DNA of 64,000 nucleotides. It comes from Candidatus Zixiibacteriota bacterium. GTDB taxonomy: Bacteria; Zixibacteria; MSB-5A5; UBA10806. The DNA lies in NCBI GenBank assembly GCA_024641335.1, contig JAHEDG010000013.1, positions 156-64,155 on the forward strand, read 5' to 3'. Shown here one piece after another: positions 37,614 through 56,401 of this stretch (position 1 is the first letter of the stretch; each line of letters begins with the position of its first letter). Under the pieces are notes generated by a model. It was given only the letters and a program-made list of their open reading frames with translations, searched no databases and was not told where the DNA came from. The translations under genes were made by a program, and so were the position numbers.

Positions 37614-37720
37614 GTGCTGTCGGGTCACCCGACCCGACAGTTGCTTGAACAAGATAAAGCGTTCAGGTGAAATCTCCTGACCCCATACCTGTGCCCGGCA
37701 GATGCCCTCGTCCGCCGGGA
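37614..37720. repeat. cluster of REP-like hairpins between convergent genes
   Basis: GTG-CTGTCGGGTC-ACCC-GACCCGACAG (37614-37640); TCAGG-N8-CCTGA; GTG-CCCGGCAGA-N8-TCCGCCGGG (37691-37719). Confidence 0.6.
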
Positions 37721-52298: not shown

Positions 52299-53084
52299 CT
52301 ATTCCAGACCGAATTCCCTATCGAGTAAGAAGCGCCGCATATGATCCCGGAGCGCTATGGGGTCGGTTGATGCTACTCTCCGCGACGTGTGCTCGCTCCA
52401 GCTGTAATCGTCGTCGGGAATCTCTCGGCCGTCGGGCGACGAAACTTTTCGTTTCGGACCGTCATACAAACCGGTGGCTTTGATAAGAGAGTCATATTCC
52501 TTTATTAATTTAGCGAAATTATTATCGCTGTATTCTTCCCGATGAATTACGACATCATCAGGCAGTCTCGGCTTGACCATCGGATCGTGATCGGGATATC
52601 CGAGGCAGATCCCCATAAGCGGGAAAACTCTTTCCGGCAGTTTCAATAGATCGCAAACCTGGCCGGGATTATTGCGTATGCCGCCGATCATGCAGACTCC
52701 CAGCCCCGAAGCTTCCGAGGCCACCAGAATATTCTGGGCCACTAAGGCGGCGTCCACCACCGCCACAATGAACATCTCGATAAACCTGTCGTTGGATTTG
52801 TATCCGCGAAGCTCGCAGACCTGTTGGAGCCTGTGCAGATCCGGGCAGATGGCCAGGAAGACGGGGCATGAAGCCACATACGATTGATCACCGCACAGGT
52901 GAGCTAATTTCGCTTTTTTCTCTTTGTCCTTAACCACGATTATTGAATACGCCTGTATGTTCGATGATGTCGGCGCCTGCCGTGCGGAGATGAGGATATT
53001 TTCGAGCAGATCGTCGGGTATAGGCTCGGGTTTGTATTTGCGTATGGAGCGGTGGGATTTTAACAGAGCGAAGATTTCTTTCAT
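52299..53084 (-). CDS. nfsA: NADPH-dependent nitro/flavin reductase, NfsA/Frp family
   Basis: 'HRSIRKY', 'APTSSNIQAYSII', 'VDAALVAQN', 'IGGIRN', 'KPRLP'. Confidence 0.88.
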   Translation of the reverse strand: MKEIFALLKSHRSIRKYKPEPIPDDLLENILISARQAPTSSNIQAYSIIVVKDKEKKAKLAHLCGDQSYVASCPVFLAICPDLHRLQQVCELRGYKSNDRFIEMFIVAVVDAALVAQNILVASEASGLGVCMIGGIRNNPGQVCDLLKLPERVFPLMGICLGYPDHDPMVKPRLPDDVVIHREEYSDNNFAKLIKEYDSLIKATGLYDGPKRKVSSPDGREIPDDDYSWSEHTSRRVASTDPIALRDHMRRFLLDREFGLE

Positions 53085-53105
53085 TAGCTTTTTCCTCTAT
53101 CCGTT

Positions 53106-53133
53106 GTAGGGATTTGATTAATCAAGCCCCTAC
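53106..53133. repeat. 28-bp GTAG-type REP palindrome
   Basis: GTAGGGATTTGATTAATCAAGCCCCTAC. Confidence 0.75.
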
Positions 53134-53139
53134 GAGTCA

Positions 53140-53168
53140 ATCATATTCCATCTTTACAAACTTGGCAA
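53140..53168 (-). promoter_or_regulatory. sigma70 promoter (copy A) for nfsA
   Basis: TTGCCA-17-TATGAT on minus strand; duplicated at 54115-54143. Confidence 0.6.
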
Positions 53169-53288
53169 CCGGTTTTTATAAGATGGGAAAATAAGCGTCG
53201 GATTGCGCGTCATACTTTATTATGACTGCTTCCCAGTATACCCCCGATATCGAAGAAGCATGGATCTATCCTCTGTATTAACTCTGAA

Positions 53289-53465
53289 GTCGTCAGGTTC
53301 GGGGACCTGACGACACGTCGTTTACGGGTGCGCGGTCAAGTCTCTGTGTTCTCCAAGTGCGGTCAAGTCTCTGTGTTCTCCAAGTGCGGTCAAGTCTCTG
53401 TGTTCTCCAAGTGCGGTCAAGTCTCTGTGTTCTCCAAGTGCGGTCAAGTCCCCGCACTTGACCGC
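53289..53465. repeat. left REP cassette: hairpin + 4x27-bp tandem units + inverted related hairpin
   Basis: GTCGTCAGGT-TCGGGG-ACCTGACGAC; (GCGGTCAAGTCTCTGTGTTCTCCAAGT)x4 at 53332-53439; GCGGTCAAGT-CCCCGC-ACTTGACCGC at 53440-53465. Confidence 0.92.
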
Positions 53466-53954
53466 TTACCAAAGAGCCAATCGATCGATTTTGATAATTC
53501 CCTGTTTTCCGGTTTTATAATATTCCGCGCTGGAACATTCCCAATCTTCCGGGTTTTCAACTAACCCCGCCTTCACCGGATTATTATGAATATAGTTCAA
53601 CTTTACAGCAAAAGTTTTCTCCGAAATGATATAAAGATCATCGAAACGATGTTGCCAAAACTTCTGAATTTTAACATTCCGACTGTTAAAATATTCAAAC
53701 ACTATTCTCTTTTTAAGATCCCTGACAAAGAAACTTATATTTTTTTCTTCCTGAATCGATACCAATAGATGCATATGGTTTGGCATTACAACATAGCCAT
53801 GAACTTTCGCGTTATCTCTTATCCTGTAGAATTCCATATTTGTTAGAACGATTTCGTAATCCTCTTTTTTCTTAAAGCGGAGAACATGATTATAGGTGGA
53901 AGTGGTTATAAAAAAAGTACCGTGGTTTTGCAAACTTCTATACCTAAGAGGCAT
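53466..53954 (-). mobile_element. rayT: REP-associated tyrosine transposase (RAYT, IS200/IS605-superfamily Y1 HUH)
   Basis: 'FFITTST', HUH 'YVVMPNHMHLL', 'FWQHRF.D', catalytic 'YIHNNPVKAGLV', 'W..SS'; flanked by REPs; AT-rich. Confidence 0.9.
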
Positions 53955-53980
53955 TTTGTTACTCTAATTTCTCCATTAAT

Positions 53981-54103
53981 GTCGTCAGGTTCGGGGACCT
54001 GACGACACGTCGTTTACGGGTGCGCGGTCAAGTCTCTGTGTTCTCCAAGTGCGGTCAAGTCTCTGTGTTCTCCAAGTGCGGTCAAGTCCCCGCACTTGAC
54101 CGC
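53981..54103. repeat. right REP cassette: direct repeat of the left cassette with 2x27-bp units
   Basis: Identical to 53289-53465 minus two units (123 vs 177 bp). Confidence 0.92.
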
Positions 54104-54114
54104 TGACCATAGCC

Positions 54115-54143
54115 ATCATATTCCATCTTTACATTTCCCGCAA
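54115..54143 (-). promoter_or_regulatory. sigma70 promoter (copy B) reading into the right REP cassette and rayT
   Basis: TTGCGG-17-TATGAT on minus strand. Confidence 0.55.
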
Positions 54144-54165
54144 CCGGTTTTATAAGAGGGAGGCA

Positions 54166-54236
54166 GTAGGTCGAAAGGCTTGTCCTTTCGACATTGATTG
54201 CCTTAAGTTGTCGAAGCCATAAAGGTTTTGACCTAC
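54166..54236. repeat. inverted GTAG-REP doublet (REPIN-like)
   Basis: GTAG-GTCGAAAGG-CTTGT-CCTTTCGAC ... GTCGAAGCC-ATAAA-GGTTTTGAC-CTAC. Confidence 0.75.
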
Positions 54237-54250
54237 ATCTGGAGGAAACG

Positions 54251-56401
54251 ATGCTTAAAAAAATCACAATACTATTTCTGCTGGCAACCTCAATCGCCAT
54301 CGCCCAGGACGACGGCATTGACCGTATAGAGGCGGCGTTGGATTCGGTCGGGTTCACCCGGGCCGACCTCGGCTATCAGCCCAAGGGTTACTGGAACCGT
54401 TTTCCCCAGCCCGACGGTATCCCCTACGTTATGCCGTTTTTCGAAGACCTCTTCGCCGAACCGCTGGAGGTCATCCCCTACACGCAGGCGATGGGGAATA
54501 CGATCAAACAATATCTCGAACCGGCCTTTTACGATTCCACCGATATCTCCCTGCATCGCATCTCCTACATACTCGGCGTGGATCGGATGATGACCGGGTT
54601 CCGCAACTACTCGGTCAATCTCTCGCCGCGCATAGACTCCACCCGGCCTATGCTCGACGCTTTCGAGCAGGTCTATTTAGCCGAGGGACAGCAGCTCAAT
54701 TTCATGGCTTTCGGTAGTCCGTCCGACTGGCCCAATTACAAGGCCGAGCTGGAATCGTCACTGGTCAAAATCCCCAACGAGTTGCAGGTCATTATAGCGG
54801 AGCTTATTCTCAACTCCTACGACGCGTACAAATGGCGGAATATCGGGATCAGGAATATCAAAACCGAAGACGCTCTGTCGCTTTTCTCCATCAACGATAT
54901 GGCCGAGTCCATGGGCGACGGCCAGAAATATTACCCGCAAATCGATGATATCGCCAAATCGCTCGACACGCATTCCCTCTATTACGGCTGTATGAAAGCG
55001 GCGCAGGCGGCGGAGACAGCGTCGAAAAAGCTGAAGAAATATCTCGACAAGAAACCAAAGAACCTCGATAAGATCGAGTTCGAGTTCGATTCGCCTATAG
55101 GCCGGATAGTGATGGCCGGGACAGGCAAGAATAATCACCCCAAAACCGATTGCGCTATCTTAGTCGATCTCGGTGGCGACGATACCTATAGCGGCAACGT
55201 CGGCGGGACATCATCGTATGATCTGCCGATAGCGATTGCGATCGATTGCGGCGGTAACGATAAATATTTCAATAGCAACCCCGATCTGCCGTCGCAAGGG
55301 ACAGGCATCTTAGGCGCCGGGATATTGATAGATGTCTCCGGTAAGGACGAATACAAAGCGGTAAAGCTCGCCCAGGGATGCGGCTTTTTCGGGCTGGGGA
55401 TACTGCTCGACGTAGCCGGTGATGATGACTACAAGTTAGAAACATCGGGGCAGGGTTGCGGCTATTTCGGTATCGGGATGAACATCGATATCGCGGGCAA
55501 TGACGTCCGCTACCTTTTCGGCGACGGCCAGGGGTTCGGGGGTGTCGGCGGTGTCGGAGTCTGCGCCGATTACGAGGGCGACGACAAATACACAGCCGAA
55601 CCGTACGAAAGCGTGGCCCACCGCGGTGATTACCATTCGGCCAACGCTATCAATGTCAATTCCGCACAGGGGGCCGGTATGGGCCGGCGCGGTGACGGTT
55701 CCGACGGCCACTCCTGGGCCGGCGGATTAGGCGCGCTGATCGATATCAAGGGTAACGATCATTACTACTCCGGCAACTGGACACTTGGATGCGGCTACTG
55801 GTTCGGCACCGGCCTGGTTTACGAGGGGGAGGGCGACGATCTTTACGAATCGGTCTATTTCACCCAAGCCTCGGGGGCGCATTTCTGTATCGGGGCCATA
55901 GTCGATGAAGGGGGTAACGACACGCACAAGCTCTGGGAAACCGCCGGAGCGGGGATAGCGTTCGGATGGGATTTCACCAACGCTATCTTATATGACAAAG
56001 GCGGCAACGACCATTACGAGGCTAAGATCATCTCTATCGCCTGCGCCCAGATCCGCTCCAACGCTTTTCTGATCGACGACGGCGGCAACGATTATTATCA
56101 ACTGCAAACCGGGCAGGAGGGATTCGGCGCGGCCACCTGGCGCGACGATTATAGCATTCCAAACACCATCTCCCCCTATGACGCCTTAGCTAAATCGTTT
56201 TCCCTGCTGCTCGATATCGGCGGCAAAGATACCTATATGGATTGGGAAAGCGAGAAGGATAAAACATCGCCCAATACGATTTGCGGCGATAACAAGACCT
56301 GGTTTAAGCCCGCCCGCGACAACGAACATTATGGCGCGAATAATTACGGTGTCGGTATGGATGTGGAGGATGGGATGGTAACGGAGGGGGAGATGTTTTA
56401 G
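54251..56401 (+). CDS. large exported protein with repeated D-x-x-G-[ND]-D-x-Y motifs
   Basis: GGAGG RBS, signal peptide, about 12 repeats of 'hhD..G.D.Y' with '(S/A)QG.G..G.G' linkers. Confidence 0.75.
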   Translation: MLKKITILFLLATSIAIAQDDGIDRIEAALDSVGFTRADLGYQPKGYWNRFPQPDGIPYVMPFFEDLFAEPLEVIPYTQAMGNTIKQYLEPAFYDSTDISLHRISYILGVDRMMTGFRNYSVNLSPRIDSTRPMLDAFEQVYLAEGQQLNFMAFGSPSDWPNYKAELESSLVKIPNELQVIIAELILNSYDAYKWRNIGIRNIKTEDALSLFSINDMAESMGDGQKYYPQIDDIAKSLDTHSLYYGCMKAAQAAETASKKLKKYLDKKPKNLDKIEFEFDSPIGRIVMAGTGKNNHPKTDCAILVDLGGDDTYSGNVGGTSSYDLPIAIAIDCGGNDKYFNSNPDLPSQGTGILGAGILIDVSGKDEYKAVKLAQGCGFFGLGILLDVAGDDDYKLETSGQGCGYFGIGMNIDIAGNDVRYLFGDGQGFGGVGGVGVCADYEGDDKYTAEPYESVAHRGDYHSANAINVNSAQGAGMGRRGDGSDGHSWAGGLGALIDIKGNDHYYSGNWTLGCGYWFGTGLVYEGEGDDLYESVYFTQASGAHFCIGAIVDEGGNDTHKLWETAGAGIAFGWDFTNAILYDKGGNDHYEAKIISIACAQIRSNAFLIDDGGNDYYQLQTGQEGFGAATWRDDYSIPNTISPYDALAKSFSLLLDIGGKDTYMDWESEKDKTSPNTICGDNKTWFKPARDNEHYGANNYGVGMDVEDGMVTEGEMF

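Follow-up and report, generated by a model that had tools for sequence, protein, structure and literature searches.

Genes for the tyrosine transposases associated with repetitive extragenic palindromic (REP) sequences, known as RAYTs, are, in the genomes described in PMC2817692, bracketed by inverted REP sequences, often directly past the stop codon, and one third of them lie within modular bacterial interspersed mosaic elements (BIMEs). The rayt gene of Escherichia coli has BIME-2 on both sides (PMC2817692), and in vitro its product, TnpA-REP, acts on BIMEs by cleavage and recombination (PMC3333891). The question of how REPs and BIMEs multiply has yet to be settled. Here we describe a RAYT gene and its repeated flanks in 64,000 nucleotides (the window) of contig JAHEDG010000013.1, assembly GCA_024641335.1, from a Candidatus Zixiibacteriota bacterium. 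The locus is an ordinary one of a domesticated transposase and belongs to a known type, the REPtron: two BIME-like modules enclose a RAYT gene that is intact and single-copy, in this case in an uncultured sediment bacterium. What sets it apart is a recurrent and little-described variant feature, a tandem array built from one arm of a REP hairpin plus a linker. Arrays of this kind recur beside distantly related RAYT genes and are absent at control hairpins. The repetition of exactly one hairpin arm and a linker next to a RAYT gene provides a concrete substrate for testing local DNA amplification by the enzyme, with the prediction that, if the enzyme amplifies, its products will differ by one unit.

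Layout of the locus

Both flanks of the RAYT gene consist of one cassette in the same orientation, made up of hairpin A, 17 nt, n units of 27 nt and hairpin B; the assembly gives n=4 for the left flank and n=2 for the right (Table 1). The right cassette, which spans 53981-54103, differs from the left in having two units, and a repeat finder aligned 108 nt of the two in register with 100% identity. Tandem Repeats Finder reported 4.4 copies on the left and 2.4 on the right, with 100% matches and no indels; by score, the left array ranks sixth among the 57 tandem arrays listed genome-wide. Every unit begins with the 10-nt left arm of B, each such copy is complementary to the lone right arm of B, and a predicted single-stranded DNA fold pairs this single 3' arm partly with the arm of an upstream unit. 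An 11-nt direct repeat, GCGGTCAAGTC, stands at the bounds of every 27-nt unit, and within the left array GT, with which the GTG head discussed below begins, comes ahead of each successive arm. Reverse-complemented, B matches A at 19 of 26 positions, and three differences are compensatory stem pairs. An earlier note, made from the letters of the DNA alone, had described the same-orientation cassettes, had taken B for an inverted variant of A abutting the stop codon (it ends one base before the RAYT stop) and had proposed that any unit can pair with the single right arm; all of this agrees with the observations above. Neither the 27-nt unit nor the 17-nt linker has a further occurrence in the 2.86-Mb, 98-contig genome. 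Exact searches with the unit gave 0 matches in public genome contigs and 0 in metagenome contigs, and an Rfam scan of 52800-54400 at E up to 1 returned no match.

The gene between the cassettes is a RAYT, as the earlier note had held, and its catalytic motifs are intact. The protein scores 106.2 bits against the NCBIfam equivalog REP_Tyr_transpos (cut-off 80), matches Pfam Y1_Tnp with 34.7 bits and reaches 20.6 against NCBIfam transpos_IS200, under the cut-off of 55. Its HUH motif is H60-M61-H62 (NHMH) and the catalytic tyrosine is Y121 in LNYIHNNPV (positions hand-counted on the translation); in an alignment to E. coli TnpA-REP (4ER8; 40 bits), the HMH and YIYINP motifs of the latter are in register with NHMH and LNYIHNNPV. 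A family search of the genome gave five matches, and besides this RAYT only one, on contig C36, lies above the cut-off; the C36 gene is flanked by a different, GTAG-headed REP family. The RAYT gene is therefore single-copy in the genome, with no near-identical duplicate. Its G+C content is 0.33-0.36, against about 0.5 in the surroundings, and searches with the protein in public genome and metagenome collections found no homologue above 58% identity.

A and B are members of a small REP family of this genome that shows compensatory stem changes, which bears out the earlier note's view of the hairpins as REPs of this RAYT. The family, A and B included, has 18 listed hairpins on 10 contigs, and two of these hairpins may be one site at overlapping contig ends. 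They share a GTC-R-GGT / ACC-Y-GAC core, and their 6-nt loops have the form NCGGRG. Stem pairs 2 and 3 remain paired in 18/18, each by way of three pair types, and pair 8 does so in 18/18 by way of two. A 3' AC tail follows 16 of the 18 hairpins, and in 17 the stem ends in C. Read on the opposite strand, the tail and the last stem base give GTG[C/T/G], with a true GTAG in one member only; the published REP head is given as GT[AG]G, near the GTG[C/T] head of this family (PMC2817692, PMC6006769). Judged by the GTG head, B runs head-first along the plus strand and A along the minus strand, which makes each cassette a head-to-head REP doublet. The locus thus reads A, B, gene, A, B, with REPs of alternating orientation. 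The modules are identical apart from n and are interrupted by the gene, as they are in E. coli (PMC2817692), and the REPs nearest to the gene (left B and right A) are mutually inverted, the arrangement that the earlier note had cited as usual for RAYTs. In this genome the linker and the doublet are found only at the two RAYT flanks, and the other family members are singlets. One of the other members lies inside the window, at 37616-37641 (contig C79 37771-37796). The CGTC-tagged REPs (Di Nocera 2013, PMC3733652), reported without a dedicated transposase, were considered as a class for these hairpins and set aside: A contains CGTC, but the tag is described there as unpaired and here lies inside the stem.

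Half-hairpin arrays beside other RAYT genes

The closest RAYT homologue (G022:C250; 57% identity) lies on a 2972-nt contig of a relative from another family of the same taxonomic order, and it has the same design, with doublets composed of A (GGCGTCAGGT...), 12 nt and B (GCGGTCGGGT...). Of its three directly oriented doublets, one adjoins the 3' end of the gene and the other two lie upstream; none has a tandem array, and the doublet pattern matches only at the RAYT flanks. The comparison with relatives that the earlier note had suggested thus shows direct doublets to be common to both loci, and the array to be present in one. As the doublet is confined to RAYT flanks in this genome and in G022, it does not show itself as a dispersed, replicating unit of the kind known as REPINs (doublets of inverted REPs). 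The second-closest homologue (50%) has single inverted REPs, and the three closest homologues have different gene neighbourhoods. An origin of the 17-nt tail of the unit from the cassette linker or from the G022 linker was rejected, as comparison by eye gave no convincing similarity.

Half-hairpin arrays were screened at 175 distinct RAYT-homologue loci, this one included, within 480 nt of the gene. An array had to have a period of 12-60 and adjoin a perfect hairpin of which one arm occurs once and the other recurs at the array period. The script found such arrays at six of the 174 other loci (L034, L042, L119, L122, L129 and L203), and L098 was added by eye as a seventh. The clearest are those of L034 (30 nt x 10.6), L122 (15 nt x 4.0), L203 (18 nt x 2.0) and L129 (37 nt x 2.0). 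The arrays of L042 and L119 are less clear-cut, and L042, counted by the rule of the script, looks by eye like near-complete REP units. The L034 array (2017-2345) comes after a hairpin and has 10.6 units of 30 nt that each comprise loop, 3' arm and linker, with variants in an a-a-b higher-order pattern. L122 and L203 are, in our reading, exact duplications with no microhomology at either end (for L203, allowing one mismatch). The closest parallel to the present locus is L098, from a metagenome (1236-1442 and 2072-2154), where a loopless 'double foot' palindrome precedes an array of 18-nt units, each opening with a portion of its 3' arm, in 10.6 copies upstream and 3.4 copies downstream of the gene, in direct orientation; the script missed it for want of a loop. 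The RAYTs of the array-bearing loci are 27-50% identical to one another, which argues that the array events were independent.

The same screen found no half-hairpin array in the outer flanks of these loci (286 kb, 136 perfect hairpins, 28 arrays screened), and in the present genome (60 arrays screened, 612 perfect hairpins) none qualified except the two at this RAYT. With the controls pooled, 6 loci per about 330 hairpins stand against 0 per about 740, roughly p = 0.001 in a rough calculation. The repeated arm is the head-proximal one in all three loci where a head can be assigned (this locus, L034 and L122), three cases only. In five arrays the boundary lies 0-2 nt away from the repeated arm, and in two it takes in the whole loop. 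No description of arm-plus-linker arrays was found in the text, supplementary figures aside, of the RAYT and REP literature consulted (PMC3116915, PMC3733652, PMC8266576, PMC3333891, PMC5581495, PMC2817692, PMC6006769 and bioRxiv 10.1101/2024.07.17.603846); the word 'half' has 0 occurrences in PMC2817692 and 'tandem' has 0 in PMC6006769.

Some further observations were made in the course of this survey. The 11-mer CCCGGCAGATG is common to the L034 arm and the L098 linker, although the RAYTs of these loci are only 32% identical. In L122, the flanking hairpins (about 190-230 and 931-1004) are preceded, in the orientation given by their loops, by CCGT[C/T], which resembles the CGTC tag. In relatives, two equally scoring RAYT homologues are separated by 2.5 kb (G056:C1:588896-589288 and 591428-591820) and two others stand side by side (G017:C8:101993-103225); each pair may be a recent duplication.

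Table 1. Positions, in window coordinates, of the elements of the RAYT locus, of the repeats next to it and of the Logan contigs that cover it
Feature	Position	Strand	Remarks
X	53140..53186	no strand	diverged copy of X', 84% over 37 nt; minus-strand TTGCCA-17-TATGAT facing nitroreductase gene
Hairpin A, left copy	53289-53314	head (GTG) on -	10-bp stem, 6-nt loop; GTCGTCAGGT / TCGGGG / ACCTGACGAC
Linker of left doublet, 17 nt	53315-53331	no strand	
Left array, four identical 27-nt units	53332-53439	+	unit = 5' arm of B + 17 nt
Hairpin B, left copy	53440-53465	+, head on plus	GCGGTCAAGT / CCCCGC / ACTTGACCGC; abuts RAYT stop codon
RAYT (TnpA-REP) gene, 162 aa	53466..53954	-	ORF listing, profile matches, alignment to 4ER8
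Hairpin A, right copy	53981-54006	-	26 nt upstream of RAYT start codon
Linker of right doublet, 17 nt	54007-54023	no strand	
Right array, two identical 27-nt units	54024-54077	+	T>C at 54050 in one Logan contig
Hairpin B, right copy	54078-54103	+	
X'	54115..54160	+	native promoter region TTTACA-17-TATAAG of 716-aa gene at 54251
Logan record 1	runs to 53318		
Logan record 2	covers 53437-54010		
Logan record 7	starts at 54075		
Logan record 8, run X2	covers 53134-53359		left flank, A, linker, unit 1 without any difference

Origin of the arrays

Published models of BIME growth offer a starting point. In that of Ton-Hoang 2012, a nick at the inverted REP (iREP) site is followed by extension, a second cut in the linker and strand transfer (PMC3333891), and the rolling-circle model of Nunvar 2010, as set out in PMC2817692, also adds whole BIME modules. 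The HUH nick/strand-transfer and rolling-circle ideas of the earlier note were thus already in print, and neither predicts units of half a REP, which would call for a cut or a template switch within the loop or next to it.

We lean towards a two-step account, in which the founding of an array is linked to the RAYT and its later evolution is independent of the enzyme. In both doublets, B's 5' arm together with 17 nt has turned into a 27-nt minisatellite. In the first step, the RAYT would act in cis on the REPs beside its own gene, and the founding duplication might arise through a nick and strand transfer within the loop or next to it, or from replication stalled at a RAYT-bound hairpin. In the second step, slipped-strand mispairing or unequal exchange among perfect units would change n, giving four copies on one side and two on the other with no point differences; a single 3' arm able to pair with any of the n+1 5' arms would favour such changes in copy number, and recent conversion or duplication between the two cassettes could account for their perfect identity. 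Two steps are proposed because slippage explains 4 versus 2 but explains neither the restriction of such arrays to the proximity of RAYT genes nor L122 and L203.

The main rival dispenses with the first step: by pure replication slippage, the arrays would be ordinary minisatellites that include a hairpin arm, and the RAYT would have had no role in their founding or change. The perfect units, whose number differs without point changes, are what slippage would leave, the 11-nt direct repeat bounds every unit, and the a-a-b pattern of L034 is typical of unequal exchange. We nevertheless consider this explanation unlikely, given that such arrays were met only beside RAYT genes (0 in the 286 kb of outer flanks and 0 elsewhere in the genome) and that L122 and L203 read as exact duplications without microhomology. 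Should it be true, the locus would be a REPtron with a minisatellite, and chiefly a marker of strain variation.

The arrays can also be read as footprints of RAYT chemistry: the head strand would be nicked in or beside the loop, the end joined to a site in the linker, and units of 'head + 5' arm + linker' added, in cis, ahead of the complete REP. We hold this to be doubtful. If it were correct, the array boundaries would map the cleavage sites and REP amplification could be tested with oligonucleotides from this locus.

Several points tell against the two-step account. An ancestor of the form A-17 nt-B plus duplication is insufficient by itself, since 16 nt per unit have no source there, and a perfect 27-nt array would change n by slippage without any enzyme. 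The published BIME models, in the form given in PMC3333891, add whole REP-containing units and not half REPs. The cleavage sites and the preference for action in cis are assumptions for this RAYT class, and the unit counts are assembly figures, with no array-spanning contig. Against the outer flanks alone, the comparison (7 loci per 338 hairpins versus 0 per 136) is weak and not significant, the loci being few. Finally, the boundary positions are not independent evidence, because the criterion of the screen forces the inner boundary into or beside the loop.

A different suggestion is that the arm repeats are functional, the head-plus-arm copies being double-stranded sites that recruit the RAYT or tune its expression in the manner of iterons. 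Iterons work beside rolling-circle origins, the arrays are found both upstream and downstream of the RAYT gene, and in this genome, L034 and L122 the repeated arm adjoins the head motif. The closest homologue (G022) has no array, however, nor do 167 of the 174 RAYT loci, and the unit sequence is not conserved across loci; of all the explanations considered here this one strikes us as the least credible.

Sequencing support

Read evidence comes from a single sediment-metagenome sample, the probable source of the window, and covers three of its runs in the form of Logan contigs (k = 31). These contigs, produced by a second assembler, reproduce all four junctions between cassette and unique DNA (Table 1). 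They break inside the repeats and none crosses an array from end to end, which leaves n=4 and n=2 as counts from the assembly alone. The check on reads that the earlier note had proposed, carried out here with contigs, therefore bears out the junctions and leaves the counts where they were. A 100-nt contig of run X1 carries a T>C change at the last base of a first unit and can be placed at 54050 (or, equivalently, at 53358); its depth, 9.11 of 45, amounts to about a fifth of the summed depth. Because of this variant, the earlier statement that the units show no mismatches, at four and two copies, is true of the assembly and not of the whole read population. The change abolishes the GT of the head ahead of the next arm.

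The unit counts and the perfect identity of the cassettes might have been made by the assembler, around cassettes that are themselves real. Apart from the unspanned arrays and the variant unit, the depths of the purely periodic 31-mer contigs lend this some colour: they are 48.9 (8 words) and 35.9 (19 words), a ratio of 1.36, where N/(N-2) predicts 1.5 for 6 units, and by our own arithmetic on noisy figures 1.36 fits 7-8 units in total. An artefact of this sort is nonetheless improbable, since the second assembler reproduces the four junctions, run X2 gives an identical left flank, A, linker and unit 1, and similar arrays occur in independent assemblies.

The contig unique to the RAYT gene (53437-54010) has a depth of 5.68, compared with 13.6 and 11.3 for the long flanking contigs. 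This is an unexplained hint: an AT-rich, hairpin-rich stretch may be poorly covered, or part of the population may be without the gene. An allele with a single cassette and no RAYT gene would add no new 31-mers and could therefore hide in the contig data. At the junction between unit and B the contig depth is 14.3. By our own arithmetic, low local cover predicts 2 x 5.7-7 and a half-and-half mixture of alleles about 17-18; the observed depth fits uniformly low local cover better than a mixture.

Mobility and the flanking promoter-like copies

Just outside the cassettes lie two copies of a promoter-like sequence of ~47 nt, X and X' (Table 1), with no further copy in the genome. In the relative G009, 30 nt of X' also precede the orthologue of the 716-aa gene (82% identical over 187 aa). 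The pair looks like an old duplication that came with the RAYT module when it inserted. The likeness of X to X' is only 84%, against full identity between the cassettes, which points to an old insertion and to cassettes that are being homogenised. Y1 transposases are not known to make such duplications.

The earlier note had taken the RAYT to be mobile rather than domesticated, with direct repeats that could excise the gene as a circle. In an autonomous mobile element of this sort, the two direct cassettes would correspond to the left end and the right end of IS200/IS605. In IS200/IS605 elements the subterminal hairpins stand in direct orientation, and the elements are not known to make target duplications. 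The orientation of the cassettes fits such a picture, as do the low G+C of the gene (0.33-0.36 in surroundings of about 0.5), the different neighbourhoods of the three closest homologues and the low depth of the RAYT-unique contig (5.68 against 13.6 and 11.3), behind which a RAYT-less allele could hide. The gene is, however, present in a single copy, has no homologue above 58% in the genome or metagenome collections and scores 20.6 against transpos_IS200 (cut-off 55); the junction depth of 14.3 fits low local cover better than a mixture (about 17-18), and the 84% likeness of X and X' bespeaks an old insertion. Direct repeats of at least 50 nt common to both flanks, moreover, were found in 32 of the 159 RAYT-homologue loci scored other than this one (of 174 other distinct loci, 15 were too short or masked). 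With G022 showing the same, directly repeated cassettes are a common layout and not a sign of mobility.

Work on E. coli points the same way. The mobilome sequencing reported in bioRxiv 10.1101/2024.07.17.603846 gave no circular DNA from the RAYT gene, which speaks against excision as a circle. Strains that lost tnpA-REP by precise deletion, with the BIMEs kept, are described in PMC3333891, and an empty site could thus be explained without transposition. We found no support for a mobile RAYT beyond the weak hint from depth, and an autonomous mobile element seems very improbable.

Neighbouring repeats

Other palindromic repeats lie close to the locus. A GTAG-headed REP doublet (GTAGGTCGAAA...) occupies 54166-54236, in the 5' leader of the 716-aa gene, and the same family flanks the C36 RAYT in inverted orientation (L001 1387-1413 and 1998-2024). 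A third palindromic repeat, GTAGGG...CCCCTAC, is located at 53106-53133, upstream of the nitroreductase gene, and has 90-94% matches many times in this genome and in relatives.

Comparison with known systems

The E. coli REPtron (tnpA-REP/yafM), as portrayed in PMC2817692 and PMC3333891, resembles the present locus in having a single-copy Y1 HUH gene between inverted REPs, a REP at the stop codon, REP/iREP doublets on both sides and a variable number of flanking modules. The protein described here is distant from TnpA-REP (40 bits to 4ER8), and its REPs have perfect 10-bp stems and a GTG[C/T] head, in contrast to the GTAG head and the bulge reported for E. coli. The REP family is also small, with only about 17-18 copies, and the repeat unit is half a REP plus a linker, whereas in E. 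coli it is given as a whole BIME.

In the REPIN-RAYT system of Pseudomonas fluorescens SBW25 (Bertels and Rainey 2011, PMC3116915), inverted REP doublets likewise flank the RAYT gene, and tandem clusters of near-identical REPINs, flanking sequence included, are described. Unlike those REPINs, the doublet of this genome is found at the RAYT flanks only and its dispersed relatives are singlets, as is also the case in G022.

By motifs alone, the protein can be compared with two TnpA-Y1 subclasses of Quentin et al. 2018 (PMC6006769), 2.4 and 2.6, the equivalents of RAYT groups 4 and 5 in Bertels 2017. Its WQ and YIHNNP motifs would suit either subclass, as would a host range outside Proteobacteria, and the 'double foot' REP of L098 is as described for subclass 2.4. 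In contrast, the methionine of NHMH falls outside the residues listed there (NH[IFV]H in subclass 2.4), and the distance from HUH to the tyrosine is about 60 aa, against reported medians of 88 and 82. For subclass 2.4 genes, intragenic length variation is put down to short repeats, the statement nearest to arm-plus-linker arrays in the literature consulted, and REP insertions in genes are noted (PMC6006769). The RAYT gene studied here has no REP within it.

With IS200/IS605 elements (IS608), finally, the locus has in common the Y1 HUH core and hairpins in the same orientation at both ends. It differs from them in that the RAYT is not multi-copy and falls under the cut-off of the IS200 model, and in that each end is a REP doublet with an internal minisatellite.

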